Part shown: in pieces, positions 23,947 through 48,274 of the stretch
How positions within the stretch are numbered: position 1 is the stretch's first letter
How the letters are laid out: every line of letters starts with the position of its first letter
Assembly: GCA_021798745.1 (NCBI GenBank)
Contig: JAJZBW010000001.1
Coordinates: 1,188-65,187, forward strand
DNA: 64,000 nucleotides
Direction of reading: 5' to 3'
Source: Actinomycetes bacterium
Lineage (GTDB): Bacteria > Actinomycetota > Acidimicrobiia > Acidimicrobiales > Bog-793
Notes under the pieces: model-generated
Told to the model about the DNA's origin: nothing
The model's database searches: none
What the model saw: the letters and a program-made list of their open reading frames with translations, nothing else
Made by a program: the position numbers and the translations under genes

Positions 23947-25798
<1,852 letters not shown>

Positions 25799-25807
<9 letters not shown>

Positions 25808-28036: not shown

Positions 28037-28990
28037 TCACCCGAGCCACGCGTGCGCGAGGTCCCGGCCGAACAGGACCGCGGCGAGCGTGCCGAACGCG
28101 AGGAAGGGGCCGAACGCGATCCGCGTCTTGCGCGTGACGCGGCCGGCCGCGATCAGGACCACCGCGACGAGGCCCGCCGCGACGAACCCGACCACGAGAC
28201 CGACCGCCGCGACGCGGTAGCCGAGCCACCCGAGGAAGCTCCCGCAGAGAGCAGCGAGGCGCACGTCGCCGAAGCCGATCCCACGCGGCGACACGAGGAA
28301 CACGAGCCCGAGCAGAGCGAACCCGACCGCTCCGGCGACGGGCACACGGACGAGCCCGGACCAGTCGTGGGTTGCCGCAGCGGCGAGGAGCAGCAGAGGA
28401 AGGCCGACGGCCCCCGTCGTGACGACGATCGGGGTCGGCAGGCGGAAGCGCTCGAGGTCGACGACGGTCAGCGCGACGAGCCCTGCGGCGAGCACGCAGT
28501 ACGAGGGGGCCGCCCAGTGGGTGGGGACGCGTGCGACGACCGCGCCGAAAAGCACCGCCGTGGTCAGCTCCGTCGCCGGGTAGCGCAGGGGGATCGGCTC
28601 CGAGCACGACCGGCATCGGCCCCGGCGGAGCACGTAGGAGACGACGGGGACGTTGTCGACGGCGCGGATCGCCGTCCCGCACGACGGACAGCGCGACCCC
28701 GGTGACACGACGGACCGACCCTCGGGGACGCGGGCCGTCACGACCGTGAGGAACGAACCGACGACCAGCCCGAACACGCCGGCCACGACGACCGCGATCA
28801 CGACCGGGGCTCCGGGCGGGGCCGGGAGGAGATCGTGTTCAACCCGCGGCTCGGGGCTGCCGTCAAGATCACCAGGAGGCGCACCGTGTCCCTTGTTGTC
28901 GACCAGACGCCGAGCGTGCCGCGGCGACGCTACTACGCGTCGCGCCCGCCGGTCCTCACTCTCACGGCTGCTCTCCTGACGAGCGCGCAT
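28037..28990 (-). CDS. pilD: Prepilin peptidase / N-methyltransferase (A24 family)
   Basis: CPSCG...CRSC Zn-finger-like pairs are present. The catalytic Asp motifs are GFGDVRLAA and a C-terminal FGPFLAFG region. It has multiple TM segments, and about 55 aa of N-terminal extension comes from the only ATG. Confidence 0.85.
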   Translation of the reverse strand: MRARQESSRESEDRRARRVVASPRHARRLVDNKGHGAPPGDLDGSPEPRVEHDLLPAPPGAPVVIAVVVAGVFGLVVGSFLTVVTARVPEGRSVVSPGSRCPSCGTAIRAVDNVPVVSYVLRRGRCRSCSEPIPLRYPATELTTAVLFGAVVARVPTHWAAPSYCVLAAGLVALTVVDLERFRLPTPIVVTTGAVGLPLLLLAAAATHDWSGLVRVPVAGAVGFALLGLVFLVSPRGIGFGDVRLAALCGSFLGWLGYRVAAVGLVVGFVAAGLVAVVLIAAGRVTRKTRIAFGPFLAFGTLAAVLFGRDLAHAWLG

Positions 28991-29043: not shown

Positions 29044-31581
29044 GTGGCGATGGCCGACGGGGACGTCGCGGAGGCGGGCTTCCCGGCGGTGTCGTTCGCG
29101 ACCGACGACGTCGACGCGACGCTGCTCGCCGAGGACATAGCGCGCGCGCGTGAGGCCGCGGTCCAGGCCGGCTTCGACTTCGTCGACCTCGAGCTGTTCG
29201 AGCTCGACCCGACCTCCGCGGACGTGCTGCCGGAGGACCGGGCGCGACGCGACCGTGCGGTCGCGGTCGGGTGGCGGTACGGCCTTCCCGTCGTGGCGGT
29301 CGCGAGCCCGGAGAACCTGTTCCTCCTCGACGACATCTACCTCGCCGCGGGACGTGACGTCCACATCGTCGTCGCGAGCGGCATCCAGATCGACCGGTGG
29401 ATCGAGCGTGTCTACGGGGGCTCGGCGCGCCGGTCCTCGTCGCCCGTCGCGTCCCCGCGTCGAGCCGCTCCCGCCGCGGGCCCCTCCGAGCTCGTCCCGA
29501 CGGGTTCGGACTCGATCGACGAGTGGACCGCCGCGGGGGCGGCCGCGCTCGTCGGGGACCTCACGACCTCCGACGCGGAGGAGCCCGCCCCGGATGACGG
29601 CGTCTCTGCCGGGGCGACGGGCCCGGAGACGGTCGAGGAGGACCTCTCCGACGCGGGCTCCCCCGGCGCGGGCGCTCCGGGCGCCGAGCTCCTCGACGGT
29701 GGCGTGCTCGCGGCGACCCCGCTCGACGCCGCCCCGCTCGACGTGACGCTCTCGATCGGCCTCCCCGTGCGAGGTGAGGGCGACACGGGCACCCCGCTCG
29801 GCCTCCTCGCGGCCTTCCCGGAGGGAGACCTCCCGGCCGCGCTGCTCGAGGAGCCCGAGGACCTCGTCGGGCCCGTCGACCTGAGCGGCCCGAAGCTCGC
29901 GCTCGGCGAGGTCCTCCTCGAGTCCGGGTCCATCAGCCCGGCGGACCTCGAGACCGCCGAGCGGCACCAGCAGTCCTCTGGCCGGGCGCTCCGGGAGATC
30001 ATCGCCGAGCTCGGCGTCGTGAACGAGGTGGACCTCCAGCGCGCCATCGCGAGAGTGGAGGGCGTCGAGTTCCTGGACCTCAACAGCTGGGCGATCGACC
30101 CGTCCGCGGCGAGCCTCCTCCCCGAGTCCCTCGCTCGCCGCTACCGGATCCTCGCGATCGGGTTCCGCGGCGATCGGCCGGTCATCGCGATGGTGAACCC
30201 GACGGACGTGTTCGCGCTGGACGACGTCCGGACGATGCTCGGGCGCGACGTCGTCACGGTCATCTGCACGGCGCGTCAGGTCGAGGAGTACCTGTCGCGC
30301 ACCTACCGGCACAGCGACGAGGCGAACGTCGCGGCTCGCAACGCGGCGCTCTCGGCCGCAGCGTCGGAGGCGACGCAGCTCGGGGAGCTCACGGACCTCC
30401 ACGCGGTCGTCGAGGACGCCCCGATCGTCAAGTTCGTGAACCTCATCTTGCGCCAGGCGCTGAACGAGCGCGCGTCGGACGTGCACATCGAGCCGACCTC
30501 GGACGACCTGCAGGTCCGCTTCCGGATCGACGGCGTCCTCCACGAGGTGACGAGCGCGCCGAAGGCGATCCAGGGCGGGGTCACCTCGCGCCTCAAGATC
30601 ATGGCGGACCTCGACATCGCGGAGCACCGTGTCCCCCAGGACGGGCGCCTCTCGCTCAACGCCGGTGGCCGCGAGATCGACCTTCGCGTCGCGACCCTCC
30701 CGACCGTGCACGGCGAGAAGGTCGTGCTGCGGGTCCTCGACAAGTCGACCGCCCCACTCGACCTCGCGCGCCTCGGCTTCCTCCCCGAGGTGCTCTCGCG
30801 CTACGAGGAGTGCTATCGCAAGCCATCGGGGACCATCCTCGTGACGGGCCCGACCGGGTCGGGCAAGTCCACGACCCTGTACGCGACCCTCAACAAGCTG
30901 AACAGCTCGGAGCGGAACCTCATCACGGTCGAGGACCCCGTCGAGTACCAGCTCCGCGGCGTGAACCAGGTCCAGGTGAACCCTCGCGCCGGGCTGAGCT
31001 TCGCGAGCGCGCTCCGGTCGATCCTGCGCTCGGACCCCGACGTCGTGCTCGTCGGGGAGATCCGGGACCGGGAGACGGCGACGATCGCCGTGGAGGCCGC
31101 CCTCACCGGCCACCTCGTGCTCTCGACGCTGCACACGAACGACGCCGCGAGCACCCCGCTCCGTCTCGTCGAGATGGGCGTCGAGCCGTTCCTCGTGTGC
31201 TCCGCTCTCGACTGCGTCCTCGCGCAGCGACTCGCTCGCCTCCTCTGCGACGTCTGCTCCGATCCCTACGAGCCGACCTCCCAGGAGCTCGTCGCCGCCC
31301 GCTGGGTGGAGGCGGACACCCCCGAGTCGGGCGATGTCCAGTTCCGCCGTGCCGTCGGATGCCAGGCCTGCAGCGGGACCGGGTACCGAGGCCGTCTCGC
31401 GATCCAGGAGGTGCTCCCTGTGACCGAGGAGGTCGAGCGGGCGATCCTCGCGCGGGCCTCGACCGAGGACATCAAGCGCCTTGCGATCTTCGAGGGGATG
31501 ACGACGATGCACCGGGACGGCCTGAGGAAGGCCGCCATGGGGCTCACGAGCCTGGAAGAGATCCTGAGGGTGGTCGTATGA
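29044..31581 (+). CDS. pilB: Type IV pilus assembly (extension) ATPase PilB/GspE family, long form (845 aa)
   Basis: Two T2SSE_N-like N-terminal domains are separated by an acidic, Pro-rich linker. Walker A is GPTGSGKSTT. The tetracysteine motif is CDVC...CQAC. Confidence 0.92.
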   Translation: MAMADGDVAEAGFPAVSFATDDVDATLLAEDIARAREAAVQAGFDFVDLELFELDPTSADVLPEDRARRDRAVAVGWRYGLPVVAVASPENLFLLDDIYLAAGRDVHIVVASGIQIDRWIERVYGGSARRSSSPVASPRRAAPAAGPSELVPTGSDSIDEWTAAGAAALVGDLTTSDAEEPAPDDGVSAGATGPETVEEDLSDAGSPGAGAPGAELLDGGVLAATPLDAAPLDVTLSIGLPVRGEGDTGTPLGLLAAFPEGDLPAALLEEPEDLVGPVDLSGPKLALGEVLLESGSISPADLETAERHQQSSGRALREIIAELGVVNEVDLQRAIARVEGVEFLDLNSWAIDPSAASLLPESLARRYRILAIGFRGDRPVIAMVNPTDVFALDDVRTMLGRDVVTVICTARQVEEYLSRTYRHSDEANVAARNAALSAAASEATQLGELTDLHAVVEDAPIVKFVNLILRQALNERASDVHIEPTSDDLQVRFRIDGVLHEVTSAPKAIQGGVTSRLKIMADLDIAEHRVPQDGRLSLNAGGREIDLRVATLPTVHGEKVVLRVLDKSTAPLDLARLGFLPEVLSRYEECYRKPSGTILVTGPTGSGKSTTLYATLNKLNSSERNLITVEDPVEYQLRGVNQVQVNPRAGLSFASALRSILRSDPDVVLVGEIRDRETATIAVEAALTGHLVLSTLHTNDAASTPLRLVEMGVEPFLVCSALDCVLAQRLARLLCDVCSDPYEPTSQELVAARWVEADTPESGDVQFRRAVGCQACSGTGYRGRLAIQEVLPVTEEVERAILARASTEDIKRLAIFEGMTTMHRDGLRKAAMGLTSLEEILRVVV

Positions 31582-31609
31582 ACCGGAGGGCTTCGGAGAA
31601 GGTGGCTGC

Positions 31610-33394
31610 ATGAGCATTGCAACGACACCGGTGTCGGAGTGGTCGCGGCGCCTCGCGGAGGCGCTCGTGTCGAACGGCCAGCTCGACGCGGAGGCGGCGC
31701 GTGCCGCGCTCGCGCGCTCGGCCTCGAGTGGGACACCCGTCGCCGTGCTGCTCTCTCGCGAGGGCCTCGTCGAGAGCTCCGAGTCGCTCGAGTGCCTCGC
31801 CGCGATCTCCGGGCTTCGCGCGGTGGACCTCGACAGGGACCCCCCGACGCTCGCCGCCGCCGCCGCCGTCCCGCTCGGCGTCGCCCGCTACCACCGGGCG
31901 ATCGGCCAACGGCTCGAGGACGGGTACCTCGTGCTCGCGTGCTCCGAGCCTCTCGCGGCGGACCACCTCCAGTCGATCGCATCGGCCATCGACTGCGGGA
32001 TCGCGGGGTGCGTCCTCGGCGACCCCATCGTGATCGACAGGCTCATCGCACACGCAGGCGCGCCGCCGAGCACGCGTGCCGCCGACGAGGAGGACACCGT
32101 GAAGCTGCTCACGCGCGCGTCGACCCGCGACGCCCCGTCACCGGCTCGTGCCGGATCGTTCGCCTCGGGGTCCGCCGACGACCTCTTCGGGAGCGGGTAC
32201 GTGCTCGCGGACCGTGAGGAGCCGTCCACCCGGGTCGTGCTCGACCTCGGCCCCGCGTCGCCCGAGCGGGCGCTGCCCGACGGGACCTCCCCGACGGACC
32301 GTCGCCCCGGACCGTTCGGACGCCCGTTCGCGAGCGACGTGAACGACCTCTTGACCTTCGCTGTCGAGCACGGCGCGTCCGACCTGCACCTCGCTGCCCG
32401 GTTCGCGCCCGCCGTGCGCATCGACGGTTCGATCCGCCCCATCGAGGACCTCGAGCCGATGGAGCCGCTCGCGCTCCGGGACATGATCTTCCAGATCCTT
32501 CCCCAGTCGGTCCGGGAGCGGTACGAGGCGACGAAGGAGCTCGACACCTCCTACGAGATCCCCGACCTCGGGAGGTTCCGGCTCAGCGTGTTCCAGCAGC
32601 GCGGAGCCGTCGGGGCGGTGTTCCGGACGATCCCCCCGACGATCCCGACGCTCGAGTCGCTCGGCCTGCCGAGAGCGCTCGCGTCCTTCGCGGAGCTCCG
32701 CCGAGGTCTTGTGCTCCTCACGGGCCCGACGGGGTCGGGCAAGTCCACGACCCTCGCCGCCGTCGTCGACCGCATCAACGCGACGAAGCCCCTCCACATC
32801 ATGACCGTCGAGGACCCGATCGAGTACCACCACGAGCACAAGCGCTCGATCGTGAACCAGAGGGAGATCGGCCAGGACACCTCGTCGTTCGCCGAGTGCC
32901 TCCGTCACGTCCTTCGCCAGGACCCCGACGTGATCCTCGTCGGCGAGATGCGCGACCTCGAGACCATCTCGACCGCCCTCACGGCGGCCGAGACGGGCCA
33001 CCTCGTGTTCGCGACTCTCCACACCCAGGACGCGCCGCAGACGATCGACCGGGTGATCGACGCGTTCCCGACGAACCAGCAGGACCAGGTGCGCGTGCAG
33101 CTCGCAGGCGCGCTCGAGGCTGTCGTGACCCAGCAGCTCGTCATCGCCGAGGGGGGCGTCGGGCGCGTGCCGGTCGCCGAGGTGATGGTGTGCACGCCCG
33201 CGATCCGGAACCTCATCCGGTCGGCGAAGACCCACCAGATCTACTCCCTCATGCAGACCGGCGGGTCGAGCGGGATGCAGACGATGGACCAGGCGCTCGC
33301 CGACGCGGTGCGGGACCGCAAGATCAGCGAGAACGTCGCGTTCGACCGGGCGCACGACCCGAAGCAGCTCCTCGACTACCTGAAGGGCTCGTGA
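31610..33394 (+). CDS. pilT: PilT-type retraction ATPase with an about 240-aa N-terminal extension containing a T2SSE_N-like domain
   Basis: The C-terminal 350 aa form a canonical PilT: GPTGSGKSTT, DPDVILVGEMRD and the signature PAIRNLIRS. The N-terminus resembles GspE/PilB N-domains (LAEALVSNGQLDAEAARAAL...VLACSEPL). Confidence 0.88.
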   Translation: MSIATTPVSEWSRRLAEALVSNGQLDAEAARAALARSASSGTPVAVLLSREGLVESSESLECLAAISGLRAVDLDRDPPTLAAAAAVPLGVARYHRAIGQRLEDGYLVLACSEPLAADHLQSIASAIDCGIAGCVLGDPIVIDRLIAHAGAPPSTRAADEEDTVKLLTRASTRDAPSPARAGSFASGSADDLFGSGYVLADREEPSTRVVLDLGPASPERALPDGTSPTDRRPGPFGRPFASDVNDLLTFAVEHGASDLHLAARFAPAVRIDGSIRPIEDLEPMEPLALRDMIFQILPQSVRERYEATKELDTSYEIPDLGRFRLSVFQQRGAVGAVFRTIPPTIPTLESLGLPRALASFAELRRGLVLLTGPTGSGKSTTLAAVVDRINATKPLHIMTVEDPIEYHHEHKRSIVNQREIGQDTSSFAECLRHVLRQDPDVILVGEMRDLETISTALTAAETGHLVFATLHTQDAPQTIDRVIDAFPTNQQDQVRVQLAGALEAVVTQQLVIAEGGVGRVPVAEVMVCTPAIRNLIRSAKTHQIYSLMQTGGSSGMQTMDQALADAVRDRKISENVAFDRAHDPKQLLDYLKGS

Positions 33395-33401
33395 GCGCGC
33401 C

Positions 33402-34634
33402 ATGTCCATGACGACGTACGAGTACCGGGTCCGCGACAACGCGGGCAAGGTCGTGAAGGGCAGGATCGACGCGGACAACAAGTCGCTCGTCGCGACACGG
33501 CTTCGCGAGATGGGGTACCTTCCCATCGAGATCAAGGCGACGTCCGCGCTCGACCTCCACCGGGACATCCGGATCCCGGGCCTGAGCGACCGGGTGAACC
33601 TGAAGGAGATCTCGGTGATGAGCCGCCAGCTCGCGACGATGGTCGCGTCGGGGCTCACTCTCGTGCGGGCGATCGCCGTGCTCTCCGCCCAGGTCGAGTC
33701 CAAGCCGCTCCGCACCGTGCTCGTCGCCGTGCGCAGCGACGTCGAGCACGGAAGCTCGTTCTCCGCCGCCCTCGCGAAGCACCCGAAGGTCTTCGACCGC
33801 CTCTACGTGTCCATGGTGCGCGCGGGCGAGGTCGGTGGGCAGCTCGACGTCGTGCTCTTGAAGCTCGCGTCCTCGATCGAGAAGCGGGTCGAGCTGCGCT
33901 CCAAGGTGCGCTCGGCGTTCACCTACCCGGTCGTCGTCGTGTGCGTCGTCGTGCTCGTGATCACCGCGATGATGCTGTTCGTCGTCCCGACCTTCAAGCA
34001 CCTCTACGGGAGCCTCCACGGCACGCTCCCGCTCCCGACGCGCATCGTCATCGGCATCTCGAGCGTCGTCGCGAGCGTCTGGGCGCTCGCGGTGGTCGCT
34101 GTCGTCGCCGGCGTCGTCCTCGCTGCCCGCTGGTGGGTGTCGACCGAGAAGGGGCGACTCACCTGGGATCGTGTCCGGCTCCGTGCACCCGTGTTCGGCC
34201 CGCTCATGTTGAAGGTCGGCCTCTCCCGCATGCTCGCGACCCTCGCGACCCTTCTCTCCTCGGGCGTCGGCATCATCGAGTCCCTCGAGATGGCCGCGGA
34301 CAACGTGAGCAACCGGATCGTGAGCAACGCGGCCCGCGGGGCGATCGTGGGCGTGCGCGACGGGCGCTCGCTCGCGTCGGCGCTCGCCGAGCACCCGGTC
34401 GTCCCCCCGATGGTCCTCCAGATGGTCGAGACCGGCGAGGAGTCGGGCGCGGTGAGCGACATGCTGGAGAAGGTCGCCCAGTTCTACGACAACGAGATCG
34501 ACGCGACGGTCGGGAGCCTCACGTCGCTCCTCGAGCCCGCGCTCATCGTGTTCATGGGCATCTGCATCGGAGCGATCGTCATCAGCCTCTACCTGCCGAT
34601 GTTCGACTACGTAAAGCTCCTCCAGCCGTCGTAA
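33402..34634 (+). CDS. pilC: Type IV pilus platform protein PilC (GspF family)
   Basis: It has two T2SSF repeats, three TM segments and the typical C-terminus (LLEPALIVFMGICIGAIVISLYLPMF). Confidence 0.92.
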   Translation: MSMTTYEYRVRDNAGKVVKGRIDADNKSLVATRLREMGYLPIEIKATSALDLHRDIRIPGLSDRVNLKEISVMSRQLATMVASGLTLVRAIAVLSAQVESKPLRTVLVAVRSDVEHGSSFSAALAKHPKVFDRLYVSMVRAGEVGGQLDVVLLKLASSIEKRVELRSKVRSAFTYPVVVVCVVVLVITAMMLFVVPTFKHLYGSLHGTLPLPTRIVIGISSVVASVWALAVVAVVAGVVLAARWWVSTEKGRLTWDRVRLRAPVFGPLMLKVGLSRMLATLATLLSSGVGIIESLEMAADNVSNRIVSNAARGAIVGVRDGRSLASALAEHPVVPPMVLQMVETGEESGAVSDMLEKVAQFYDNEIDATVGSLTSLLEPALIVFMGICIGAIVISLYLPMFDYVKLLQPS

Positions 34635-34685
34635 GGAGATGGGTCCGGTGCACCGTTGCGAAGGGCGTGAGAAGGGGCGGGCGAC

Positions 34686-36395
34686 ATGACGCGGCGAATC
34701 GGCATCGAGGTGACCGCCACCTCGGTGCGGGCTGTCGAGGTGGAGAGCGGCGGCGCGCGCTCGAAGGTGCTGTCGTTCGGGGAGGCGGCGCTCCCGAAGG
34801 GCGCGGTCGCCGACGGGGCGATCCTCGACCGCGCGGCCGTGAAGCGGACGGTCGCCTCCTGCCTCAAGAACGCCCACCTCGAGCGGCGGAGGTTCGGTGC
34901 CCCGCCCGAGGTGTGGCTCGCGGTCGCGGGCCTCCGGGCCATCAGCCGGGAGATCGTGATGCCGAGCGTCCCCGACGCGGACCTCGACGCGGCGGTCCGT
35001 CTGCAGGCGCTCGACATCATCCCGTTCCCCGAGGACGAGACCCTCCTGTCGGCACGGACCCTCGGGACCGTGACGTCCCCGGACGGGACCGAGCTCGTGC
35101 GGGTCCACCTCGCGGCTGCGCACCGGGCGCTCGTGGAGCCGTTCGTCGACGTGCTCGCCGAGTCCGGTCTCGTCGTGAAGGGCGTGGACCTCGCGTCGTC
35201 CGCCCTCGTGCGGGCGCTCGCGGGAGCGGACCTCGGGGTGGAGGCGATCGTCGCGATCGGCGCGGACCTCACGACCATCGTGATCCACGAGCACGGCGAG
35301 CCGCACTTCGTCCGGACGATCGCGGGCGGCGGGAACGCCGTGACTCGGGCCATCTCGGCGGCGCTCGACATCCCCGCGCCCGACGCGGAGCAGATAAAGA
35401 TCCGGCTCGGGTGGTCGCCGACCGACGCGGGGAGGCTCCCGGCGGAGGCCGTCGCTGCGGCGCGTGACGGCTCCGCCCCGCTTCTCGGGGAGATCCGGAG
35501 CTCGATCGACTACTTCGCGACGCTGCCCGGGCTCCCGGAGGTGTCACGTGTGCTCGTGACCGGCGGAGGCTCCCGGCTCGCGGGCTTCGTCGAGAGGCTC
35601 GAGTACCAGGTGCGCGTGCCCGTCACGACGGGGAGCTGGCTCGAGAACGTCGACACGGGACGCCTCGGCGTCGACCGCATCCACCTCGACACGGTCGGAG
35701 CGGTCGCCGCGGGCGCCGCCATGACGGAGCCCTCGGGTCGGAAGGCGCTCGACCTCCTCCCGCCCGAGGTCCTCGTCGAGCGACGCCGGGCGCGCACGAC
35801 GCGGGCGATCCAGAGCGCCGCAGTCGTGCTCGTCGTCGCGCTCGTCGCGGGCGGGGCGCTCCGCTTCCTCCAGGTCCGCAACGCCGAGCACGGCGTCGGG
35901 AACATCCAGGGCGAGATCTCGTACCTCGAGAGGCAGCTCCCCGCCTACGACAAGGTCCAGCAGCAGGACAACGCGATCCTCACGGACTCCCACATCGGGA
36001 TGCCGATCGTGAGCCACGAGGTGAACTGGCCTGCCGTGCTCGCCGCTCTCGCGCGGTACACGCCCTCGTCGGTCAGCGCGAGCGGCTTCTCGGGCTCGAC
36101 GACCGTCGCCCCGACGGCGGCGACGAGCGTGACGACCGGCCACCCGGTCGCTCCCCCGTCCGCCCTGCCCGCCGCGACCGACACGGTCGGGACGGTGAAC
36201 CTGTCCTTCTCCGCCCCCCAGTACCCCTCGTTCAAGGAGTGGTTCGACGCGATGGTCGCATCCGCGAGTTTCGAGATCGTCCAGTACTCCGGCGTGTCGA
36301 GCAGCGGGCACGGCGTCGACTTCACCGCGCAGCTCGCGGTGACGGGGAGGATCCACACGGACCGCCTCGCCGAGTTCGAGGTTCCGAAGCGATGA
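34686..36395 (+). CDS. pilM: PilM-PilN fusion protein (actin-like ATPase fold, then a TM and a PilN-like periplasmic domain)
   Basis: The N-terminal 350 aa are PilM-like (IGIEVTATSVRAVEV..., VLVTGGGSRLAGF). Then comes LDLLPPEVLVERRRAR, the TM AAVVLVVALVAGGAL, and about 200 aa beyond it. Confidence 0.85.
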   Translation: MTRRIGIEVTATSVRAVEVESGGARSKVLSFGEAALPKGAVADGAILDRAAVKRTVASCLKNAHLERRRFGAPPEVWLAVAGLRAISREIVMPSVPDADLDAAVRLQALDIIPFPEDETLLSARTLGTVTSPDGTELVRVHLAAAHRALVEPFVDVLAESGLVVKGVDLASSALVRALAGADLGVEAIVAIGADLTTIVIHEHGEPHFVRTIAGGGNAVTRAISAALDIPAPDAEQIKIRLGWSPTDAGRLPAEAVAAARDGSAPLLGEIRSSIDYFATLPGLPEVSRVLVTGGGSRLAGFVERLEYQVRVPVTTGSWLENVDTGRLGVDRIHLDTVGAVAAGAAMTEPSGRKALDLLPPEVLVERRRARTTRAIQSAAVVLVVALVAGGALRFLQVRNAEHGVGNIQGEISYLERQLPAYDKVQQQDNAILTDSHIGMPIVSHEVNWPAVLAALARYTPSSVSASGFSGSTTVAPTAATSVTTGHPVAPPSALPAATDTVGTVNLSFSAPQYPSFKEWFDAMVASASFEIVQYSGVSSSGHGVDFTAQLAVTGRIHTDRLAEFEVPKR

Positions 36396-36982
36396 GCGCC
36401 CCGGCCCGCAGCCTCGTGCAGCGCCCGGCGGTGCTCGTCTCGGTCGTCGGCGTCCTCGTGCTCGCTCTCGCGTGGTGGTTCGCGTGGATGGCGCCGGAGG
36501 GGACGAAGCTCGCGGGGATCCGCCAGCAGCAGGTCACCGCGCAGCAGACCGAGACGCGCCTCGACCTCCGGCTCGTCCAGCTCCGAGCGGAGGCCAAGCA
36601 GGTCCGGGCCGCCGCCCCGTTCCTCGAGCACTTCGCCCAGGCGATCCCGCCGGTCCCCGACGCCCCGGACCTCGTCGTCCAGGTGTACCACCTCGCGGTC
36701 GCGAACGGCGTGAGCCTGCAGAGCGTGACCGACGACTCCGTGCAGACCACGGGGCTCGGGTACTCGACGATCCCCGTCTCGCTCAGCGTCGCGGGGCCCC
36801 ACGACCAGCTCCTCGCGTTCGTCTCCGGCCTGTACAGGCTGACCCGCCTTCTCACGATCCAGTCCGTGAGCCTCTCCGGCAACGGCAACCTGAACGCGTC
36901 GAGCTTCTCGAACTACACGGCCTCGATCAGCGCGACCGCGTACACGACGTCGGCGCCGAAGGCCCCGGCGGGCGCGTCCTGA
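36392..36982 (+). CDS. pilO: PilO-like pilus assembly protein
   Basis: An ATGA overlap joins it to pilMN. It has an N-terminal TM (VLVSVVGVLVLALAWWF), a coiled coil and a PilO-type C-domain (IPVSLSVAGPHDQLLAFVSGLYRLTRLLTI). Confidence 0.8.
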   Translation: MSAPARSLVQRPAVLVSVVGVLVLALAWWFAWMAPEGTKLAGIRQQQVTAQQTETRLDLRLVQLRAEAKQVRAAAPFLEHFAQAIPPVPDAPDLVVQVYHLAVANGVSLQSVTDDSVQTTGLGYSTIPVSLSVAGPHDQLLAFVSGLYRLTRLLTIQSVSLSGNGNLNASSFSNYTASISATAYTTSAPKAPAGAS

Positions 36983-36990
36983 GCGAGACG

Positions 36991-38556
36991 ATGGCCGCGA
37001 CACCGTGGTCTCGTCGCGCTCGCGCCGACGCGCGCCGCGCGTGCGCCGGCGCGCCCCTCGACGACGGGTTCTCCCTCGTCGAGGTGCTCGTCGCGCTCCT
37101 CGTGCTCGCCCTCGTCGTGCTCCCCCTCACGCTCGTGCTCATAACGACGCACAGCTCGGCGAACACCCTGCACCGTAGAGCCGAGGCGGCGGACCTCGCG
37201 ACCCAGGCCCTCGAGACGGCCCAGTACCAGGCGGCCGCGGGCGCGCCGCTCGCGACCGGGGCGACGACGTCGACCCAGATGTCGGGGAGCGACCAGTTCC
37301 GCGTCTCGCTCGACCTCTCGATCCTCCCGCAGTCCGGGGTCGGCACGTTGTGCACGGCCCCTCCCGGGGCGACCTCGACCGAGGTGTGGCAGGCGACCGC
37401 GTCCGTGAGCTGGGGGTCGTCGGGGTCGAGCGGGAGCTCGGTCGTCGAGCGCGCGCTCATCTCGCCCGCGCAGGCCGACCTCGCGAACGTGAGCGCGGGC
37501 GAGATCGCCGTCCCGGTCTACACGACCGTCGCGTCCTCCATGTCGACGACCACGACGACGTCCTCCCCCGGCTCGCCCGCGGCGCTCCCGACGACGCTCG
37601 AGACACAGACCCCGATATCGGTGACCGTGACGGGCCGCTGCACCCTCGCATCCTGCGCGCAGCCCTCGGGCACCCCCCTGCCCGTGACGACGGAGACCGA
37701 GAACACAGGGTCGACCGGGTGCGCGGTCTTCCCGAACCTCTGGGCAGCGACGGGGTGGCTCTACACCGTGACCGTCTCCGGGAACGCGGGATGGGTCGAC
37801 CCGAGCGAGCTCTCGGACTCGGCGACCGCGACGGGCGTCCCGACGCTCGCGCCGATGGCGATCACTCCCGACTCCGTCACCCAGCCGACCGGCCAGATCG
37901 TCCTCGACCAGGGAGCGGCGGTCACGGTCGACTTCTCGGACACCGTGAACAAGTCGGCGGTGCCAGCTCCGTTCCTCCCCGTGACCTTCGTGAGCCCCGG
38001 GGCGTGCGGGAGCGCGGGCCTGTGCGTGCTCGGGAACGCGACGACTGCGTTCGCGACGGTGGCGTCCTCGGCGCAGACCGCCCTGCTCTTCCCGTTCCCC
38101 TCGGCCGGCGCCAACTACACGGTGTACGCGGGAGGGACGTCCGACGCGGACCCGAGCGCCGCGTACTACGGGACGGGCGGGACGGTCACGCGTCTCACGG
38201 CCGGCGCCGCGGGATCGGCGACGGTCACGCTGCCGCTGTACCCGCTCTCGCTGACGGCGACCGTGAAGAGCGACGCGGGCTCCGTCATCCAGCTCCTCGC
38301 GAAGGACTCGGCGGGGAACACGATCGACCTCAACTACGCGGGCGGGACCGGGGCGAGCCTCACGAGCCTTCCGCTCGGGGAGTACGAGATCGGGGCGACC
38401 GTCTCGGGCTCGAACTCGAACGTCACGTACTCGGGTGGGACCGCGTACATGTGGGTCACACCGACGGGAGTCTGCCCCTCCACGTCGCCGCTCTCCCCGG
38501 GGACCTCCGTGTGCTCGTCGCCCTCGACGTCGCAGATCGCGGTGACCGTCGGATGA
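36991..38556 (+). CDS. Large minor pilin (521 aa) with a prepilin N-terminal cleavage/methylation motif
   Basis: The class III signal is ...APLDDG|FSLVEVLVALLVLALVVLPL, with Glu5. A long Ser/Thr-rich beta-rich C-terminal region follows. Confidence 0.85.
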   Translation: MAATPWSRRARADARRACAGAPLDDGFSLVEVLVALLVLALVVLPLTLVLITTHSSANTLHRRAEAADLATQALETAQYQAAAGAPLATGATTSTQMSGSDQFRVSLDLSILPQSGVGTLCTAPPGATSTEVWQATASVSWGSSGSSGSSVVERALISPAQADLANVSAGEIAVPVYTTVASSMSTTTTTSSPGSPAALPTTLETQTPISVTVTGRCTLASCAQPSGTPLPVTTETENTGSTGCAVFPNLWAATGWLYTVTVSGNAGWVDPSELSDSATATGVPTLAPMAITPDSVTQPTGQIVLDQGAAVTVDFSDTVNKSAVPAPFLPVTFVSPGACGSAGLCVLGNATTAFATVASSAQTALLFPFPSAGANYTVYAGGTSDADPSAAYYGTGGTVTRLTAGAAGSATVTLPLYPLSLTATVKSDAGSVIQLLAKDSAGNTIDLNYAGGTGASLTSLPLGEYEIGATVSGSNSNVTYSGGTAYMWVTPTGVCPSTSPLSPGTSVCSSPSTSQIAVTVG

Positions 38557-39605
38557 CCGCTCCGTCGCGCCCGAGCGCCCCGCACCTCGGCCGTCCCCTA
38601 CGCCGCGCACGCAGGGGGGACGGAGGGTTCACGTTCATCGAGCTCCTCGTCGCGATGGCCGTCCTCGCGATCATCGTGCCCGTCATCTACGGGCTCATAG
38701 GGAACCTGAGCCAGCAGAGCGTCGACCTCCACGACACGATGCTCGGGCTGAAGCAGGACCAGACCGCCGGCAACGCGCTCCTCGAGTACCTGCACGGCGC
38801 GGTCACGGTCCTGCCGGGGTCGACCCCGACGACGCTCATCGCCTCGATCGAGGCGGGCTACAACACGACCACCGGGACCCAGGACATCGCGACGCTCGAA
38901 GCCCAGCTCGTGCCGCCGAGCGGCTCGAACGCCGACGCGTCCTTCGTCGTGTCCATCACCCCGCAGGGCGGGACGCCGCACCCCATCGGGACGTACTACG
39001 TCGTGAACGGCGCGAACCCCTTCACGTACTACTACTACGCGGCTGCGGGAACTGCAGCTCCCTCGTGCGGAGCGACGACCCCGACGACCACGACCAACCC
39101 GCCGGACGCGACCGGCCAGGAGCTCGTCGCGGTCCACGACCCGTGCGCCGTGCTCGCGAACGTCGTCGCGGTCGGGGTCGACGTCACGTTCCTCGCCGGG
39201 CCGCAGAAGCCCCTCCAGGGCTTCCAGGCAATCCAGCCGACGACGTTCCAGACGACCGTGTACCTCCAGAACGCGAACGCCCCCGCCCCGACGACCGCGA
39301 CGGCCGTGACCTACCCGAACATCTCGCCGACCTACGGGACCACGGTGGCGTTCACCGTCACGGTCACTCCCGCGCCCGACGGGGGCACGGTCACCGCGGT
39401 CGTCACGTTCGGGGGCTCGACGATCTCGAACTCCTGCTCGGGCGCCACGACGCTCTCGGCGACCGGTCAGGCGTCGTGCTCGTTCTTCGCGTCCTACCGC
39501 GGCACGTACACGGTCACCGCGACCTACTCGGGCGCGACGAGCCCACCCGCTGCCTCGGCCTACACCGCGTCGACCTCGGCGGGCACGCCGGTGAACGCGT
39601 CGTGA
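38553..39605 (+). CDS. Minor pilin (350 aa) with a C-terminal Ig-like domain
   Basis: An ATGA overlap joins it to the upstream gene. The signal is ...RRGDGG|FTFIELLVAMAVLAIIV. The C-terminus resembles a bacterial Ig-like fold (TTVAFTVTVTPAPDGGTVTAVVTFGGSTI...GTYTVTATYSGA). Confidence 0.85.
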   Translation: MTAPSRPSAPHLGRPLRRARRGDGGFTFIELLVAMAVLAIIVPVIYGLIGNLSQQSVDLHDTMLGLKQDQTAGNALLEYLHGAVTVLPGSTPTTLIASIEAGYNTTTGTQDIATLEAQLVPPSGSNADASFVVSITPQGGTPHPIGTYYVVNGANPFTYYYYAAAGTAAPSCGATTPTTTTNPPDATGQELVAVHDPCAVLANVVAVGVDVTFLAGPQKPLQGFQAIQPTTFQTTVYLQNANAPAPTTATAVTYPNISPTYGTTVAFTVTVTPAPDGGTVTAVVTFGGSTISNSCSGATTLSATGQASCSFFASYRGTYTVTATYSGATSPPAASAYTASTSAGTPVNAS

Positions 39606-41980: not shown

Positions 41981-42152
41981 CGGTCGCGCGTCCGCGGACG
42001 GAGCCGCCGGCGGCGCCGGCGGGCGCACGCGTGCCACGAGTCGTGGTCGACGAGCGCGCCCGACGGGGGAGGGTCCGGACTTTCGCCTCAAGGAGGTGTC
42101 ACGTCGCGCCGTTGTAACCGAGAGCCGAGCGTCGGCGCGATCCCAAGGAGGA

Positions 42153-42755
42153 ATGGAAGAGTTGCGAACCCATCTCAAGCGGCATCTCTCGAAGATGTCC
42201 GAGGGCGCCGATGAGGGATTCACGCTCATCGAGCTCCTCGTCGTCCTGTTGATCCTCGGCATCCTGCTGGCGATCGCGATCCCCACGTTCCTCACGGTGA
42301 CGAAGAGCGCGACCAACACAGCGGTGACGTCGAACCTTCAGACCGCCCTCACGGGTGCGGACACCTACTACACGCAGAACAACGGGAGCTACACCTCCCT
42401 CGTCGGCGCGACGTCGGTGTCGGACATCACCCAGGAGGGGACGGGTCTCTCGTTCCCGGCCAAGACGGACGGCTCGGCGGCCTCGACCAGCTCGAAGGTC
42501 GTCAGCCTCGACGTCATCGACTCGAACGACCTCGTGCTCGCGGCGTGGAACGGGAGCAACCGCTGCTACGCGATCGCGGACCAGAAGTCGCAGGGGGTCA
42601 TCTCGACGACCTTCACCAGCCTCCCGAAGGCAGTCGGGACCTACTACGGCTGGTACAAGGCGACGACGAACGCGACCTGCACGTCGGCGGGCGCGACGGC
42701 CGTCACGGCGACCGGACCGGGCGCGTGGACGAACACGGGCGGCTTCCCGGCGTAG
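42153..42755 (+). CDS. pilA: Major type IV pilin
   Basis: AAGGAGG lies 5-6 nt upstream of the ATG. The leader MEELRTHLKRHLSKMSEGADEG precedes |FTLIELLVVLLILGILLAIAIPTF. An alternative ATG at 42195 would give an 8-aa leader. A strong hairpin follows the stop. Confidence 0.9.
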   Translation: MEELRTHLKRHLSKMSEGADEGFTLIELLVVLLILGILLAIAIPTFLTVTKSATNTAVTSNLQTALTGADTYYTQNNGSYTSLVGATSVSDITQEGTGLSFPAKTDGSAASTSSKVVSLDVIDSNDLVLAAWNGSNRCYAIADQKSQGVISTTFTSLPKAVGTYYGWYKATTNATCTSAGATAVTATGPGAWTNTGGFPA

Positions 42756-42917: not shown

Positions 42918-44687
42918 TCAGCGCGTCCCGCCGAGCTGGGCCAGGAGCTGGTGCGCGGGACGGTAGCCAGGTGCGGTCGCGAGCGCGCGGCGGAGGAGCA
43001 CGACGGCCTCCGTGCTGTGCCCCTCGTGTGCCTCGACGCGGGCGAGCCCGACGAGCGCCTCGGTCGCGAACCGGTCGAGACGGAGCGCGGTGCCGTACTC
43101 GGCGGTCGCGGCGCGCAGGTTCCCGAGCTCCGCGTCGGCGCCCGCGAGACCCGTCCACATCTGGGTGTCCGTCGGGTTGCGGCTCACTGCGACCGAGTGC
43201 CAGTAGCGGGAGAGACGGAGCCAGTGCGTCCCGTCCGCGAGGGCGACCGAGCGGTTCGTGGCGACCTCGGCGGGCACGAGCGCCGCGTCGGCCCACACCG
43301 CGAGCGCCCGTGCTCCGGCCGTCGCGACCGGGTAGTCGAACCGGAGGAGAGCGACGTTGAGCTCGTAGTCCCCGTAGAGCATGACGGCGGACGCGCCGAG
43401 CGCGACGAGCGTGAGCGCTGCCGTCGCCGCGTGGCGCGCCCGGCCGCGGCTCGGGCCGCCCGAGAGCGCCGTCCCCGCACCGGCCGCTCCGAGCGCGAGG
43501 AACGCGATCGGCGTGACCCCGACGTTGAGGGGCTCGACGAGCTCGACCGCGACCGCCATCACGGCGACGCCGAGGAGCGCTCCGGAGGCGCCCCGGAGCG
43601 CGAGAAGCCCGAACGCGGCGAACGCGAGGATCCCGAGGATCCCGGTCGTGATCGCGACCTCGACGAAGATGTCGTGCGCGTCCGTGAAGTACGTCGCGAC
43701 CGGGAGGCGCCGCGCGAGCGCCGCCGACTCGAACGCGGTCGACGCCTGGAGGGTCTGGCCCGGGCCGAAGCCGATCAGCGGCCGATGCTCGAACGCATGG
43801 AGGAGCACCTTCCACAAGGTGGGACGCGGGTTCGAGACGACGCTCTGCGCGATGCGCTCGTGGACGAGCGCGCTCGAGAGCCCGTAGGTCACGGCGTAGC
43901 CCGCCGCGAGCGACGCGGCGAACAGGGCGGCGAAGCGGTCCCGGTGGACGACGAGCGCCCACGCGGCGAGGAGCGCGAGGAGGGCGATCGCGAACCGCTC
44001 GCCGCTGAGCTCGAGCGACGCGGAGAGCAGGAGGGCGAGGAGCGACCACCTCCACCTCCCGGAGCACGTGCGCACGAGAACGACCGCGAGCGCTCCGAGC
44101 TCGATGCTCTCGAGGAAGATCGGGTTCCCCATGAGCCCGTCCGCCTGCGTGCCCTGGTAGAGGCCGAGGACCGGGCTCGCGAGCTGGAAAGCCTGCTGGA
44201 CGATCGCCACGAGGGCGTTCACGACGGCGCTCGCGACGAGACCGGCCACGACGAGCTCCCGGCCGCGCGGGCCGGTCGAGCGACCGATCGCCCACGCCCC
44301 GACGACGCCGCACCAGAACACCCACCCGGTCCCGGTGAGGTACCCCCCGAAGAACCCCGACAGCACGCTCCCGGAGGACGCGGCCGAGGCGAGCCCGACG
44401 GCGAGGAACGCGGCCGCCGCCCACGCGGCGCGGTCCCGCGCGCGGCATCGACGTGCGAGCTGAGGCAGCCCGACGGCCGCGACGACGAGCAGGACCGCGA
44501 GCTTCGGCGTGAACGTGTAGGAGCCCATGACCGGGGAGATCGCGACGGGGAGGAGGAACGCGACGATCGCCGCGAACACGTCGAGGGCTCCCGCTCCCTC
44601 GAGCCACTCCGGCACGGCGAAGCGCGAGGTCGGCGCGGCACCGGTGATTGAATTGGTCACGGTGGCGAGGTCAGCGCGGTGGCTCAT
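42918..44687 (-). CDS. O-antigen ligase/polymerase-like (Wzy_C) polytopic membrane protein with C-terminal TPR repeats
   Basis: The Wzy_C-type loop reads HRPLIGFGPGQ...DAHDIFVEVAITTGILGIL. It has more than 10 TM segments. The C-terminus looks TPR-like (AELGNLRAATAEYGTALRLD...). The start is uncertain (44687, 44660 or 44615). Confidence 0.8.
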   Translation of the reverse strand: MSHRADLATVTNSITGAAPTSRFAVPEWLEGAGALDVFAAIVAFLLPVAISPVMGSYTFTPKLAVLLVVAAVGLPQLARRCRARDRAAWAAAAFLAVGLASAASSGSVLSGFFGGYLTGTGWVFWCGVVGAWAIGRSTGPRGRELVVAGLVASAVVNALVAIVQQAFQLASPVLGLYQGTQADGLMGNPIFLESIELGALAVVLVRTCSGRWRWSLLALLLSASLELSGERFAIALLALLAAWALVVHRDRFAALFAASLAAGYAVTYGLSSALVHERIAQSVVSNPRPTLWKVLLHAFEHRPLIGFGPGQTLQASTAFESAALARRLPVATYFTDAHDIFVEVAITTGILGILAFAAFGLLALRGASGALLGVAVMAVAVELVEPLNVGVTPIAFLALGAAGAGTALSGGPSRGRARHAATAALTLVALGASAVMLYGDYELNVALLRFDYPVATAGARALAVWADAALVPAEVATNRSVALADGTHWLRLSRYWHSVAVSRNPTDTQMWTGLAGADAELGNLRAATAEYGTALRLDRFATEALVGLARVEAHEGHSTEAVVLLRRALATAPGYRPAHQLLAQLGGTR

Positions 44688-45981: not shown

Positions 45982-45987
45982 CCCCTC

Positions 45988-47463: not shown

Positions 47464-48228
47464 GGCCACGAGGTCGAGCGCGATCCCCTCGACGAGCGCC
47501 CTCGGGGTGACGACCTCGGGCCACCGCCTCCTCGCGCCCCGGTGCACCGCGAGCAGCGAACGGACGGGGAGCGAGTTCCGCGAGCCTCCCTCGTGCCGGC
47601 GGTAGCCGAGCCAGGTGTCCGGGACCGGCACCCCCGTCGCCCCGCGCGAGAGGGCGGCGACCCAGAAGGCCCAGTCCTCCATCCCGGTGCGATCGAACCC
47701 CGCGTCGAACCCGCCCACCTGCTCGAAGAGCTCGCGGGTGAACATCGCCGACCCGTTCACGAAGTTCGCCCTCGCGAGCCTCCGGGGGTCGAAGGGCCGC
47801 GCGGGCCAGGACCCGGAGCGGCTCCCGAAGTAGCGGACGCCGCTGTAGGCGAAGGACGCCTCGGTCCCGACGAGCCGCGCCTCGAGCGCCTCGAGGTAGT
47901 TCGGTGCGACGACGTCGTCCGCGGAGAGGATCACGACGAGCTCCCCACCCGTGGCGCGCACCCCGTCGTTGAAGGTCGCGACCGCCCCGCGTGCGGGCGC
48001 GCGGGAGAGCACGCCGCAGGCGGGCCATCGCTCGGCGAAGGCGCGGGCGACGTCGAGCGTCTCGTCGGCGCTCCCGTCGTCGACCACGAGGACCTCGTCG
48101 GCGGGTCGCGTCTGCGCCGCGATGCTCCCGAGCGCGTCCGGGAGGAACCGCCCGTAGTCGTGGCAGGGGACGACCACGCTCAGCGTCCGCACGCCCCCGG
48201 GGATCGCCGCGCGCAGCGGAGCGCTCAC
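47341..48228 (-). CDS. Glycosyltransferase family 2
   Basis: The motifs LSVVVPCHDYGRFLPDALGSIAAQT...VLVVDDGSADET and SADD are present. Its 3' end overlaps the flippase 3' end by 123 nt (convergent). Confidence 0.85.
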   Translation of the reverse strand: MSAPLRAAIPGGVRTLSVVVPCHDYGRFLPDALGSIAAQTRPADEVLVVDDGSADETLDVARAFAERWPACGVLSRAPARGAVATFNDGVRATGGELVVILSADDVVAPNYLEALEARLVGTEASFAYSGVRYFGSRSGSWPARPFDPRRLARANFVNGSAMFTRELFEQVGGFDAGFDRTGMEDWAFWVAALSRGATGVPVPDTWLGYRRHEGGSRNSLPVRSLLAVHRGARRRWPEVVTPRALVEGIALDLVASARVRLLERAGRAGPERVTSAPGLSGEKEAPDERRGPQAE

Positions 48229-48274
48229 GTCACCACGCTACCGACGGGTGCCGGCGGGCCGGTAGCGTCGGTCC

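Follow-up and report, generated by a model that had tools for sequence, protein, structure and literature searches.

More than 1,200 modular pilins with 264 architectures have already been catalogued, on the criterion that InterPro signature IPR012902 occurs together with another domain (Raynaud et al. 2021, PMC8179133; Dataset S1). In Streptococcus sanguinis, the GspI-like PilA, PilB (with a vWA domain), and PilC (with an Ig-like and a ConA-like lectin module) form a tip complex (PMC8179133, PMC9934059). These proteins provide the precedent for tip-located modular pilins acting as adhesins in a monoderm and for a Glu5-less member at the top of the complex (PMC8179133, PMC9934059); PilY1 is absent from monoderms (PMC9934059). 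Three-gene sets with an I-like gene, a middle gene, and a K/X-like gene are also found in the type II secretion system (T2SS; GspI-GspJ-GspK) and in type IVa pili (T4aP; PilV-PilW-PilX). Large single minor pilins occur in type IVb pili (T4bP): CofB of ETEC and TcpB of Vibrio cholerae have approximately 500 aa, divided among pilin, beta-repeat, and beta-sandwich domains. CofB is tip-located and initiates assembly (PMC8179133), and TcpB has the same location and role (PMC5207764).

The window analysed here, a 64,000-nucleotide stretch of DNA from the Acidimicrobiales MAG of an uncultured soil actinobacterium, holds a complete type IV pilus operon in the order PilD, PilB, PilT, PilC, PilM/N, PilO, P1, P2, P3, PilA, in which P1 and P2 are the genes of primary interest. 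To our knowledge, type IV pili of Actinomycetota, and especially those of the abundant soil and peat Acidimicrobiales, are essentially unstudied; literature searches for type IV pili of Acidimicrobiia returned metagenomic mentions only, and no paper that treats their minor pilins. The PilD prepilin peptidase gene (28037..28990, minus strand) is divergent from pilB, and its product matches the Pfam families A24_N_bact (E = 4e-32) and Peptidase_A24 (E = 1e-7), both above the cut-offs. PilD is the enzyme expected to cleave the leaders of P1, P2, and PilA. On the plus strand, the machinery block (29044..36982), recognized from ORFs and their translations, Pfam PilM_2 and PilO matches, and TIGR01175 (pilM), consists of PilB (29044-31581), PilT (31610-33394), and PilC (33402-34634), each named from its translation and T2SSE-type similarity, followed by a PilM/N-like gene (34686-36395; PilM_2 and TIGR01175) and PilO (36392-36982; Pfam PilO). 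The machinery genes have GC3 values of 0.94-0.98 and keep the same order in three relatives, and the ATPases at the locus are PilB and two of the PilT type. A cognate prepilin peptidase and assembly machinery are therefore present, with PilB, PilT, PilC, PilM, and PilO directly upstream of P1. PilA, the presumed major pilin (42096..42755, plus strand), scores 29.9 bits against N_methyl and has N-terminal matches to GspG, PilA, and ComGC; the mature protein begins at Phe (nt 42219) and has 178 aa (18.2 kDa). A search of the window for the GFxxxE motif recovered P1, P2, PilA, and one irrelevant match at 5866, with no GspH/FimU-like fourth minor pilin, and no PilY1 equivalent was found in the window.

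P1 (36991-38556, 521 aa) and P2 (38553-39605, 350 aa) are both on the plus strand and start with ATG, the P2 start overlapping the P1 stop codon in an ATGA. The preliminary description of this locus had reported two ORFs of these lengths, each with a canonical class III signal and Glu5; the ORFs lie exactly where it placed them, and the motifs are present. With a slash between positions -1 and +1, the signals read LDDG/FSLVEVLVALLVLALVV in P1 and GDGG/FTFIELLVAMAVLAII in P2, with Gly-1, Phe+1, and Glu+5 in each. Both proteins exceed the gathering score of the Pfam N_methyl family (PF07963; 24.0 bits for P1 and 28.2 bits for P2, against 21.2), and in an NCBIfam scan both are over the cut-off of TIGR02532. 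The three signal residues are conserved across the P1 and P2 families: Gly-1 of P1 is kept in all 24 homologues that cover the leader region, and G25 and E30 of P2 are nearly invariant in the family alignment. Taken with structure prediction, family conservation, and operon context, the HMM matches support P1 and P2 as prepilin-type minor pilins enlarged by extra modules. P2 falls under the definition of a modular pilin through its Big_3_5 Ig-like domain, and P1 through approximately 360 extra residues that are predicted to form separate beta-sandwich modules.

The Arg-rich leader peptide of P1 (36991..37068, residues 1-26) ends at Gly26 and is followed by the pilin module (37069..37470). In this module the alpha-1 helix spans residues 27-82 and contains Phe1 and Glu5, and residues 83-160 form a small beta-sheet head that is GspI/PilV-like. 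In the AlphaFold model of this module, the helix extends over residues 29-82 and strands over residues 90-157 (pLDDT ~65-84), and Foldseek matched the head to one chain, 116 residues long, of a model of the XcpGHIJK pseudopilus (TM 0.67, probability 1.0, rank 38). Residues 26-145 align with profile positions 3-115 of 132 of the NCBIfam model XpsI (GspI) with an E-value of 6e-6, and the NCBIfam PilV model is matched with an E-value of 5e-7, under its cut-off. Indeed, P1 reaches no family cut-off among PilV (TIGR02523; 30.2 vs 52.2), XpsI (NF047828; 26.4 vs 150), and GspI (TIGR01707; 16.6 vs 44.35). With an XpsI alignment that spans 113 of the 132 positions, P1 is I/V-like in form, and is not a family member by score. 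One P1 relative is labelled 'PilV family' in RefSeq.

Beyond the pilin module, the P1 model contains only beta structure from residue 169 onward. The middle beta-rich modules (37471..38175, residues 161-395; strands 169-380, pLDDT mostly 70-87) include a Ser/Thr-rich clade-specific insert (nt 37522-37599, residues ~178-203; pLDDT below 50 at 182-198), which is found only in the four closest relatives (columns 229-250 of the family alignment). The C-terminal beta-sandwich module (38176..38556 with the stop codon, residues 396-521; strands 400-520) is the best-predicted part of the AlphaFold model (pLDDT ~85-94 over residues 400-520). Its conservation extends across the family, and W488, G493, and C495 are invariant or almost so. 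Searched as a whole, the model finds its best Foldseek matches among adhesin stalks built of several Ig-like domains, headed by the TIE protein (6fwv, E = 4e-11) and followed by SdrD, UafA, and a streptococcal ancillary pilin; full-length TM-scores are low (~0.17), because only individual domains match. Residues 164-521, whole and as two halves, match no Pfam family at E <= 10, and so the modules can be called beta-sandwich from the predicted structure only. We dropped a CarboxypepD_reg-like or Big_ assignment for P1 on the same result. The three beta modules of P1 were also considered as repeats of each other or of the P2 Ig domain, and hmmsearch and hhalign detected no relation (probabilities below 2 per cent). 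The extra region of P1 (~360 residues) is predicted, from the model, to consist of beta-sandwich modules that resemble the Ig-like stalks of Gram-positive adhesins.

In P2, 38553..38798 encodes the leader (residues 1-25) and the alpha-1 helix, which covers residues 26-82 and includes Phe1 and Glu5; AlphaFold predicts a helix over residues 28-82. The globular pilin region (38799..39287, residues 83-245) contains conserved motifs such as VAVGVDVTFLAGP and YLQNA and, between Cys172 and Cys198, a loop specific to the clade. Its AlphaFold pLDDT is below 50 and the model is unreliable for residues 52-245, and because of this low pLDDT of the pilin head the GspJ/PilW-like identity of P2 is taken from gene order only. 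The remainder of P2 (39288..39605, stop codon included) encodes an Ig-like module of the Big_3_5 type at the C-terminus (residues ~246-335) and a short tail. Big_3_5 (PF16640) matches residues 257-344 with an E-value of 1.5e-7 and 32.3 bits, just below the gathering score of 35.5; a precomputed PF16640 match is listed for P2 (marked 'weak') and for most of its homologues, and distant homologues have two Big_3_5-type domains. Residues 250-330 are modelled with a pLDDT of ~90, and the module is matched by Foldseek to Ig V-set, complement MG, and intimin D00-D0 domains.

The C-terminus of P2 is therefore confidently predicted to be a bacterial Ig-like domain, as the preliminary description had read it. 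The same description had seen in P1 a long beta-rich region with a beta-sandwich-like end and had proposed AlphaFold and Foldseek as a check on both proteins; the models bear it out, with an Ig-like fold at the P2 C-terminus and an all-beta extra region in P1. The CarboxypepD_reg-like domain that it had suggested looking for by HMM scan is not among the Pfam matches of P1 residues 164-521.

The pair is followed by P3 (39602..41980, plus strand; 792 aa, GTG start, GTGA overlap, GC3 0.96), a PilX/GspK-like gene. Its pilin-like N-terminus, RDDSG/QIIVIIVILVV, has Q-I-I-V-I at positions +1 to +5 and hence no Glu5; it is in register with the P1 signal (hhalign, probability 92 per cent, E = 5e-7) and is conserved in 12 homologues. 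A Gln at +1 is unusual for a prepilin peptidase substrate. P3 is the largest and most conserved of the three proteins, with 49 per cent mean column identity and many invariant residues in its alignment. There are weak matches to PilX_N and DUF4900: PilX_N (PF14341) is found in 2 of the 12 homologues (best E = 0.014) and not in the P3 of the window, and P3 matches no NCBIfam model, GspK models included. Several P3 relatives are called PilX by JGI, and the COG-based names of relatives are PilV and PilX. Searched against all PDB sequences, the P1, P2, and P3 family profiles matched the N-terminal pilin helix or noise only. Cysteine counts of the mature proteins are even (8, 4, and 16, respectively) and the pI is ~4.1, in keeping with an extracellular location.

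We found 14 related loci, all in MAGs of Acidimicrobiales, Acidimicrobiaceae, or unclassified Actinomycetota, and the P1-P2-P3 order is fixed in every one that is long enough to show all three genes. The cassette is sometimes in tandem duplicate and sometimes apart from the machinery genes. P2 relatives have one or two Ig domains, and modules of approximately 65 aa are inserted at different sites between lineages. The P1 family comprises 184 representative clusters and the P3 family ~50, and a distant P1 relative occurs in cultured Acidiferrimicrobium. The conservation that the preliminary description had wanted examined is thus present, P1 and P2 both belonging to conserved families with fixed order. 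Its recognition of two modular minor pilins stands, and what it missed is the third gene: the pair is two-thirds of a conserved cassette.

The closest parallel in organization is with S. sanguinis. In both systems, a monoderm host has a retractile T4aP and no PilY1, and the genes of three minor pilins lie together; one of the proteins is GspI-like, and one has no Glu5. In both, a class III signal and a small pilin module precede grafted C-terminal module(s) that include an Ig-like fold, and the modules are so bulky that they would fit at the tip only. In contrast to S. sanguinis, the GspI-like protein here (P1) is the multi-module member and keeps Glu5, and the Glu5-less member is the 792-aa P3. 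No sequence similarity extends past alpha-1N, there is no vWA or lectin domain, and the proteins come from Acidimicrobiales of soil and peat metagenomes. The GspI-GspJ-GspK and PilV-PilW-PilX sets share the gene order; the head of P1 is similar to GspI/PilV profiles and to one chain of a pseudopilus model, and P3 lacks Glu5 as GspK does. However, P1, P2, and P3 have two to four times the size, scores stay below the family HMM cut-offs, P2 would correspond to J/W by gene order, and neither a GspH/FimU equivalent nor PilY1 is in the window. CofB and TcpB resemble P1 as single minor pilins of approximately 500 residues in which a pilin domain is followed by beta-rich domains, but they are type IVb proteins that form homotrimers without an I-J-K-like set, and no sequence relation was detected.

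The accessions in the modular-pilin catalogue include IPR003343, IPR003344, IPR003961, PF05345, PF17957, and PF17963 (Raynaud et al. 2021, PMC8179133; Dataset S1). Like P1 and P2, the catalogued proteins have N_methyl followed by Ig-like or beta-sandwich domains. We take the six accessions to be Big_2, Big_1, FN3, He_PIG, Big_7, and Big_9, respectively. PF16640 (IPR032109) is absent from Dataset S1, and only the exact N_methyl-Big_3_5 combination is missing there (Raynaud et al. 2021); P1 would escape the approach of the catalogue because its modules have no signature. The novelty claimed in the preliminary description was nonetheless overstated, as modular pilins with Ig-like fusions had been catalogued (PMC8179133) and PilC itself carries an Ig-like module (PMC9934059). 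Since such pilins are documented as widespread, P1 and P2 represent a further example rather than a new principle. They leave the view of type IV pili unchanged, extend a known principle, and add unannotated beta-sandwich modules to the catalogue. The 'graft a module onto a pilin' strategy, put forward on the basis of S. sanguinis, is cleanly illustrated by the locus, here in a distant monoderm phylum and simultaneously in each of the three members of the putative tip complex. The P1 and P3 clusters also provide defined families for structural and adhesion studies, and Acidiferrimicrobium sp. IK, with WP_262321907.1 as its P1 homologue, offers a relative in culture.

We consider it probable that P1 and P2 are true minor pilins, of the prepilin type, belonging to a retractile type IV pilus of a monoderm Acidimicrobiales bacterium and that, with P3, they form a priming, adhesive tip cap; processing, tip location, interaction among the three proteins, and the adhesive role are inferred. 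PilD would remove the Arg-rich leaders after Gly26 of P1 and Gly25 of P2, and the hydrophobic alpha-1 helices with Glu5 would serve first as membrane anchors and later in the filament core. A complex of P1, P2, and P3 would prime filament assembly and end at the pilus tip, in the I-J-K order of GspI-GspJ-GspK, PilV-W-X, and S. sanguinis PilA-B-C. P3, being PilX/GspK-like and without Glu5, would be expected at the very top. The cap would contain the ~360 beta-sandwich residues of P1, one Big_3_5 Ig-like domain of P2, and ~700 further residues of P3; at ~160 kDa, it would be acidic and probably disulfide-bonded, and would most likely attach to a surface or polymer in place of a PilY1 adhesin.

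Ig-like modules are often mere spacers. P1 and P2 might accordingly prime assembly only, their modules forming a passive stalk that spans the thick actinobacterial wall or projects P3, with any binding or enzymatic activity in P3 or elsewhere. The Ig-like and CnaB-type domains of the best structural matches (SdrD B repeats, the TIE protein, and UafA) are indeed stalks, Pfam scans recognized no ligand-binding domain (lectin, vWA, and so on) in P1 or P2, and the high conservation and size of P3 would fit such a division of labour. However, the number of modules differs by lineage, both in the P2 Ig domains and in the ~65-aa inserts, and cassettes are duplicated; variation of this kind is seen more typically in surface-exposed adhesins that diversify than in a spacer of fixed length, and we regard a purely passive stalk as unlikely. 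An adhesive cap thus remains the preferred reading. More tentatively, Acidimicrobiales may possess a self-contained, duplicable P1-P2-P3 'tip cassette' in which all I-J-K-type members are modular, the ~160 kDa cap functions without PilY1, and diversity arises by tandem duplication and by the insertion of a small ~65-residue module without known signature at different sites in all three proteins; we offer this as a speculation with a modest chance of being correct. If it is true, one pilus machine could show alternative adhesive tips.

It is considerably less plausible that P1-P3 serve a different filament, either a Com-like pilus for DNA uptake or a short pseudopilus for secretion, and not adhesion. 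Large minor pilins do bind DNA in some systems (ComZ, PMC8179133), and N-terminal HMM matches to ComGE, ComGF, and the pseudopilins GspI, GspH, and GspJ point in this direction, but these matches cover the generic alpha-1 segment only and are far under the family cut-offs. In addition, the PilB and two PilT-type ATPases, PilM/N/O, and a normal PilA are T4aP-like, and no ComEA, ComEC, or secretin genes are among the ORFs examined, which cover part of the window.

Finally, the window DNA is 72 per cent GC and has chance long ORFs in every frame, including a 565-aa minus-strand shadow ORF (36913-38610) opposite P1. The idea that P1 and P2 are themselves chance high-GC ORFs, or two genes joined by frameshift or misassembly, as the preliminary description had cautioned, draws on the presence here of such ORFs longer than 500 aa in several frames and has practically no chance of being right: we rejected it because in-frame GC3 is 0.95 over the full length of both genes (equal to that of the neighbouring pil genes), because identical copies of the P1 protein are present on seven contigs (the three shown are from different public assemblies), and because there are ~30 clusters of homologues for each protein, and dozens of full-length homologues with 30-85 per cent identity and conserved termini. 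P1 and P2 are thereby confirmed as real genes of the operon. Near-full-length P1 relatives have ~470-610 aa, and P2 relatives mostly have 350-500 aa.

P1 (36991-38556, + strand), the first of the two large proteins, is encoded by an ORF of 521 aa, and P2 (38553-39605, + strand) by an ORF of 350 aa whose start overlaps the P1 stop (ATGA). The GC content of the window is ~72%, and several frames across this region hold long ORFs. GC3 is 0.95 for each gene and high over the full length (flanking pil genes, 0.94-0.98). Seven contigs carry an identical P1 protein, and three of them, from different public sources (a Logan SRA assembly, an assembly in ENA, and a MAG in NCBI), have the same neighbors. 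Homologs of each protein form ~30 clusters, in which near-full-length P1 relatives measure ~470-610 aa and P2 relatives mostly 350-500 aa. In a search of 1.84 billion representative proteins, the P1 profile matched 184 clusters at E <= 1e-10, mostly end to end. Therefore, the ORFs and coding frames of the preliminary description hold, and its caveat of a frameshift or assembly artifact joining two genes is excluded.

The N-termini of P1 and P2 have the form of class III signal peptides, in which an Arg-rich leader and Gly precede a hydrophobic stretch that begins F-S-L-V-E or F-T-F-I-E. Both proteins exceed the gathering threshold of Pfam N_methyl (24.0 bits for P1 and 28.2 bits for P2; threshold 21.2) and the TIGR02532 cut-off, and Gly-1, Phe+1, and Glu+5, numbered from the predicted prepilin cleavage site, are kept throughout both families, in agreement with the signals originally proposed. 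Only P1, P2, and a normal-sized pilin have the GFxxxE motif in the 64 kb window. The gene for PilD (28037-28990), a prepilin peptidase with the domains A24_N_bact and Peptidase_A24, lies in divergent orientation immediately before an operon with the order PilB, PilT, PilC, PilM/N-like, PilO, P1, P2, P3, and the normal-sized pilin (178 aa when mature). Another PilT-type ATPase is encoded upstream. Given the signals, PilD, and the operon setting, "minor pilins" is a reasonable name for P1 and P2. Their leaders (36991-37068 and 38553-38627) are long and Arg-rich, with 25-45 residues (columns 1-50 of family alignments A1 and A2), and are partly conserved across the family (e.g. MSLCAR..KWAI.RRLDAAGLR...). 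T4a-type pilin leaders usually have 5-10 residues.

In an AlphaFold2 model of P1 built with 28 homologs (mean pLDDT 73), a helix (residues 29-82) and a four-stranded sheet (90-157) are followed by beta structure only, to the C-terminus, as had been anticipated for this region; residues 400-520 are modeled best (pLDDT ~85-94). The pilin head resembles GspI/PilV: two NCBIfam models, XpsI (113/132 positions, E 6e-6) and PilV (E 5e-7), match it, both below their family cut-offs; a 116-residue chain of the XcpGHIJK pseudopilus model, judging by its length probably XcpV/GspI, matches it in Foldseek (TM 0.67); and a relative from Acidiferrimicrobium sp. IK is named "PilV family" in RefSeq. The remaining ~360 residues match no Pfam family even at E <= 10, so the suggested Pfam scan yielded no assignment, and no sequence relatives were found in the PDB. 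The P1 modules show no sequence-repeat relationship to one another or to the P2 Ig domain. In Foldseek, the whole model best matches multi-domain adhesin stalks of the Ig-like or CnaB type, led by the Bacillus anthracis TIE protein (E 4e-11) and followed by SdrD, UafA, and a streptococcal ancillary pilin; the TM-scores are low (~0.17), as expected, because only individual domains superpose. Residues 182-198 (SSMSTTTTTSSPGSP) are predicted to be disordered and belong to an insert that is confined to the clade of the window and missing from distant homologs. This Ser/Thr-rich linker spans residues 178-203 (37522-37599).

The P2 model is confident only for the alpha-1 helix and the C-terminal domain (pLDDT ~90 at residues 250-330). 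The middle region is strongly conserved in the family and poorly modeled (pLDDT <50 at residues 52-245). The C-terminal domain, previously described as Ig-like, indeed resembles Ig-like folds in Foldseek and matches Pfam Big_3_5 (PF16640) at E 1.5e-7 and 32.3 bits, just below the gathering score of 35.5. Precomputed PF16640 matches are present in nearly all P2 homologs, and more distant ones (430-450 aa) have two such domains in tandem. From gene order, P2 would be GspJ/PilW-like. Between Cys172 and Cys198, P2 has a Thr/Pro-rich clade-specific loop (residues ~165-200; 39050-39150) that distant homologs lack.

P3 (39602-41980, + strand), the next ORF, overlaps P2 (GTGA), has GC3 of 0.96, and encodes a 792-aa protein annotated as "hypothetical" in NCBI. 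Its N-terminus, R-D-D-S-G|Q-I-I-V-I-I-V-I-L-V-V, is conserved, aligns in register with the class III signal of P1 (hhalign probability 92%), and lacks Glu5. Subunits of the GspK/PilX type, which sit on top of the complex, characteristically lack Glu5 (PMC9934059). PilX_N and DUF4900 matches in the P3 family are weak, and several relatives are named PilX by JGI. P3 is probably the PilX/GspK-like cap and possibly the real effector. Its homologs form ~50 clusters, mostly of 700-880 aa. P3 has many invariant motifs (including PYYGP, GPVYTNDQLHVCG, and CLEGDxYVEGEL) and no detected match among Pfam and PDB sequences.

By analogy with GspI-J-K/PilV-W-X and Streptococcus sanguinis PilABC, we infer that PilD would cleave P1, P2, and possibly P3, which would then join through their alpha-1 helices into a priming complex with P3, lacking Glu5, on top. 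The complex would end at the pilus tip and display ~160 kDa of extra modules there, acidic and probably disulfide-bonded; the mature proteins have pI ~4.1 and even cysteine counts (8, 4, and 16). Since PilY1 is absent from monoderms (PMC9934059), these modules are likely adhesive effectors by the same analogy. As the main alternative, the Ig-like modules might serve only as spacers or stalks.

Modular pilins are well established, with >1,200 proteins in 264 architectures (Raynaud et al. 2021, PMC8179133), and PilC of S. sanguinis has an Ig-like module (PMC9934059). Beta-rich domains also form the C-terminal part of the ~500-aa pilins CofB and TcpB. As we read its accessions, the Raynaud et al. 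list includes fusions to Big_1, Big_2, FN3, and He_PIG. In public databases, P1- and P2-type proteins already carry the labels prepilin-type, PilV-family, or Ig-like repeat protein, and P1 and P2 therefore extend an established concept. Their novelty is limited to the N_methyl-Big_3_5 architecture, the exact form of which is absent from the 2021 catalog (PMC8179133), P1 modules without a signature, a different host lineage, and the joint enlargement of all three I/J/K-type members.

Scanning one genome for each GTDB species identified 14 related loci, all in MAGs labeled Acidimicrobiales, Acidimicrobiaceae or, in one case, only Actinomycetota, which answers the earlier question of conservation. 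Wherever a locus is of sufficient length to reveal the gene order, that order is P1-P2-P3. In two close relatives (L006 and L007), the trio lies between PilO and PilA, as in the window; in L017, PilO is followed by P1 before the contig ends; in others, the trio is away from machinery genes. In some Acidimicrobiaceae MAGs, the cassette is tandemly duplicated away from pilB/T/C/M/O genes (L002/L010 10001-20757, L008 2980-15125, and L015 4206-14937). The second P1 copy of L002 is longer (601 vs 529 aa) because of an inserted module. A ~65-residue module (consensus ..SVTV.SGGFPGV..GM.VSGTGI..GTTV.SISGNTLTLS.AATATGTVTLTF) is inserted, sometimes twice in one protein, at two different sites in P1 relatives (P0014, P0016, P0021-P0025, and P0028), at one in P2 relatives (P0050, P0053, and P0057), and in one P3 homolog (L012 11856-15410). 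It has no Pfam match, is absent from the proteins of the window, and has the appearance of a small domain exchanged among tip proteins.

On the strand opposite to the presumed major pilin gene (pilA), and adjoining it, is a gene for a Wzy_C O-antigen-ligase-type protein (589 aa, C-terminal TPR repeats), followed by genes for a Bac_transf initiating sugar transferase, a Polysacc_synt flippase, and two GT2 glycosyltransferases (42918-49141 in all). Wzy_C/TPR and sugar transferase genes also adjoin pilA in L006 and L007. The region is a candidate locus for pilin O-glycosylation (TfpO/PglL-like), consistent with Ser/Thr-rich pilins, and could equally be a general exopolysaccharide cluster.

In the PilM-like protein (34686-36395; 569 aa), a PilM_2 domain (residues 6-315) and then a transmembrane segment precede a C-terminal extension of ~200 aa, which is possibly a fused PilN. 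The N-terminal extension of PilB (29044-31581; 845 aa) is long. PilB residues ~30-227 and ~327-421 both match one stretch of the L017 PilB N-terminus (tblastn), suggesting an internal duplication. GC3 is high and GC at the second codon position unusually high (0.66-0.70) in three small consecutive ORFs (19099-20733, + strand; 213, 120, and 166 aa), none of which matches Pfam; a Kelch-repeat beta-propeller protein (21774-23063, + strand) comes after them. At 23947-25807, the ORF called for a LuxR-type response regulator (plus strand) is overlapped by a GAF-HisKA_3 histidine kinase on the minus strand, and the ORF starts therefore have to be revised; this pair may regulate the pil operon. A universal stress protein gene (25893-26354) is next, ~2 kb upstream of that operon.
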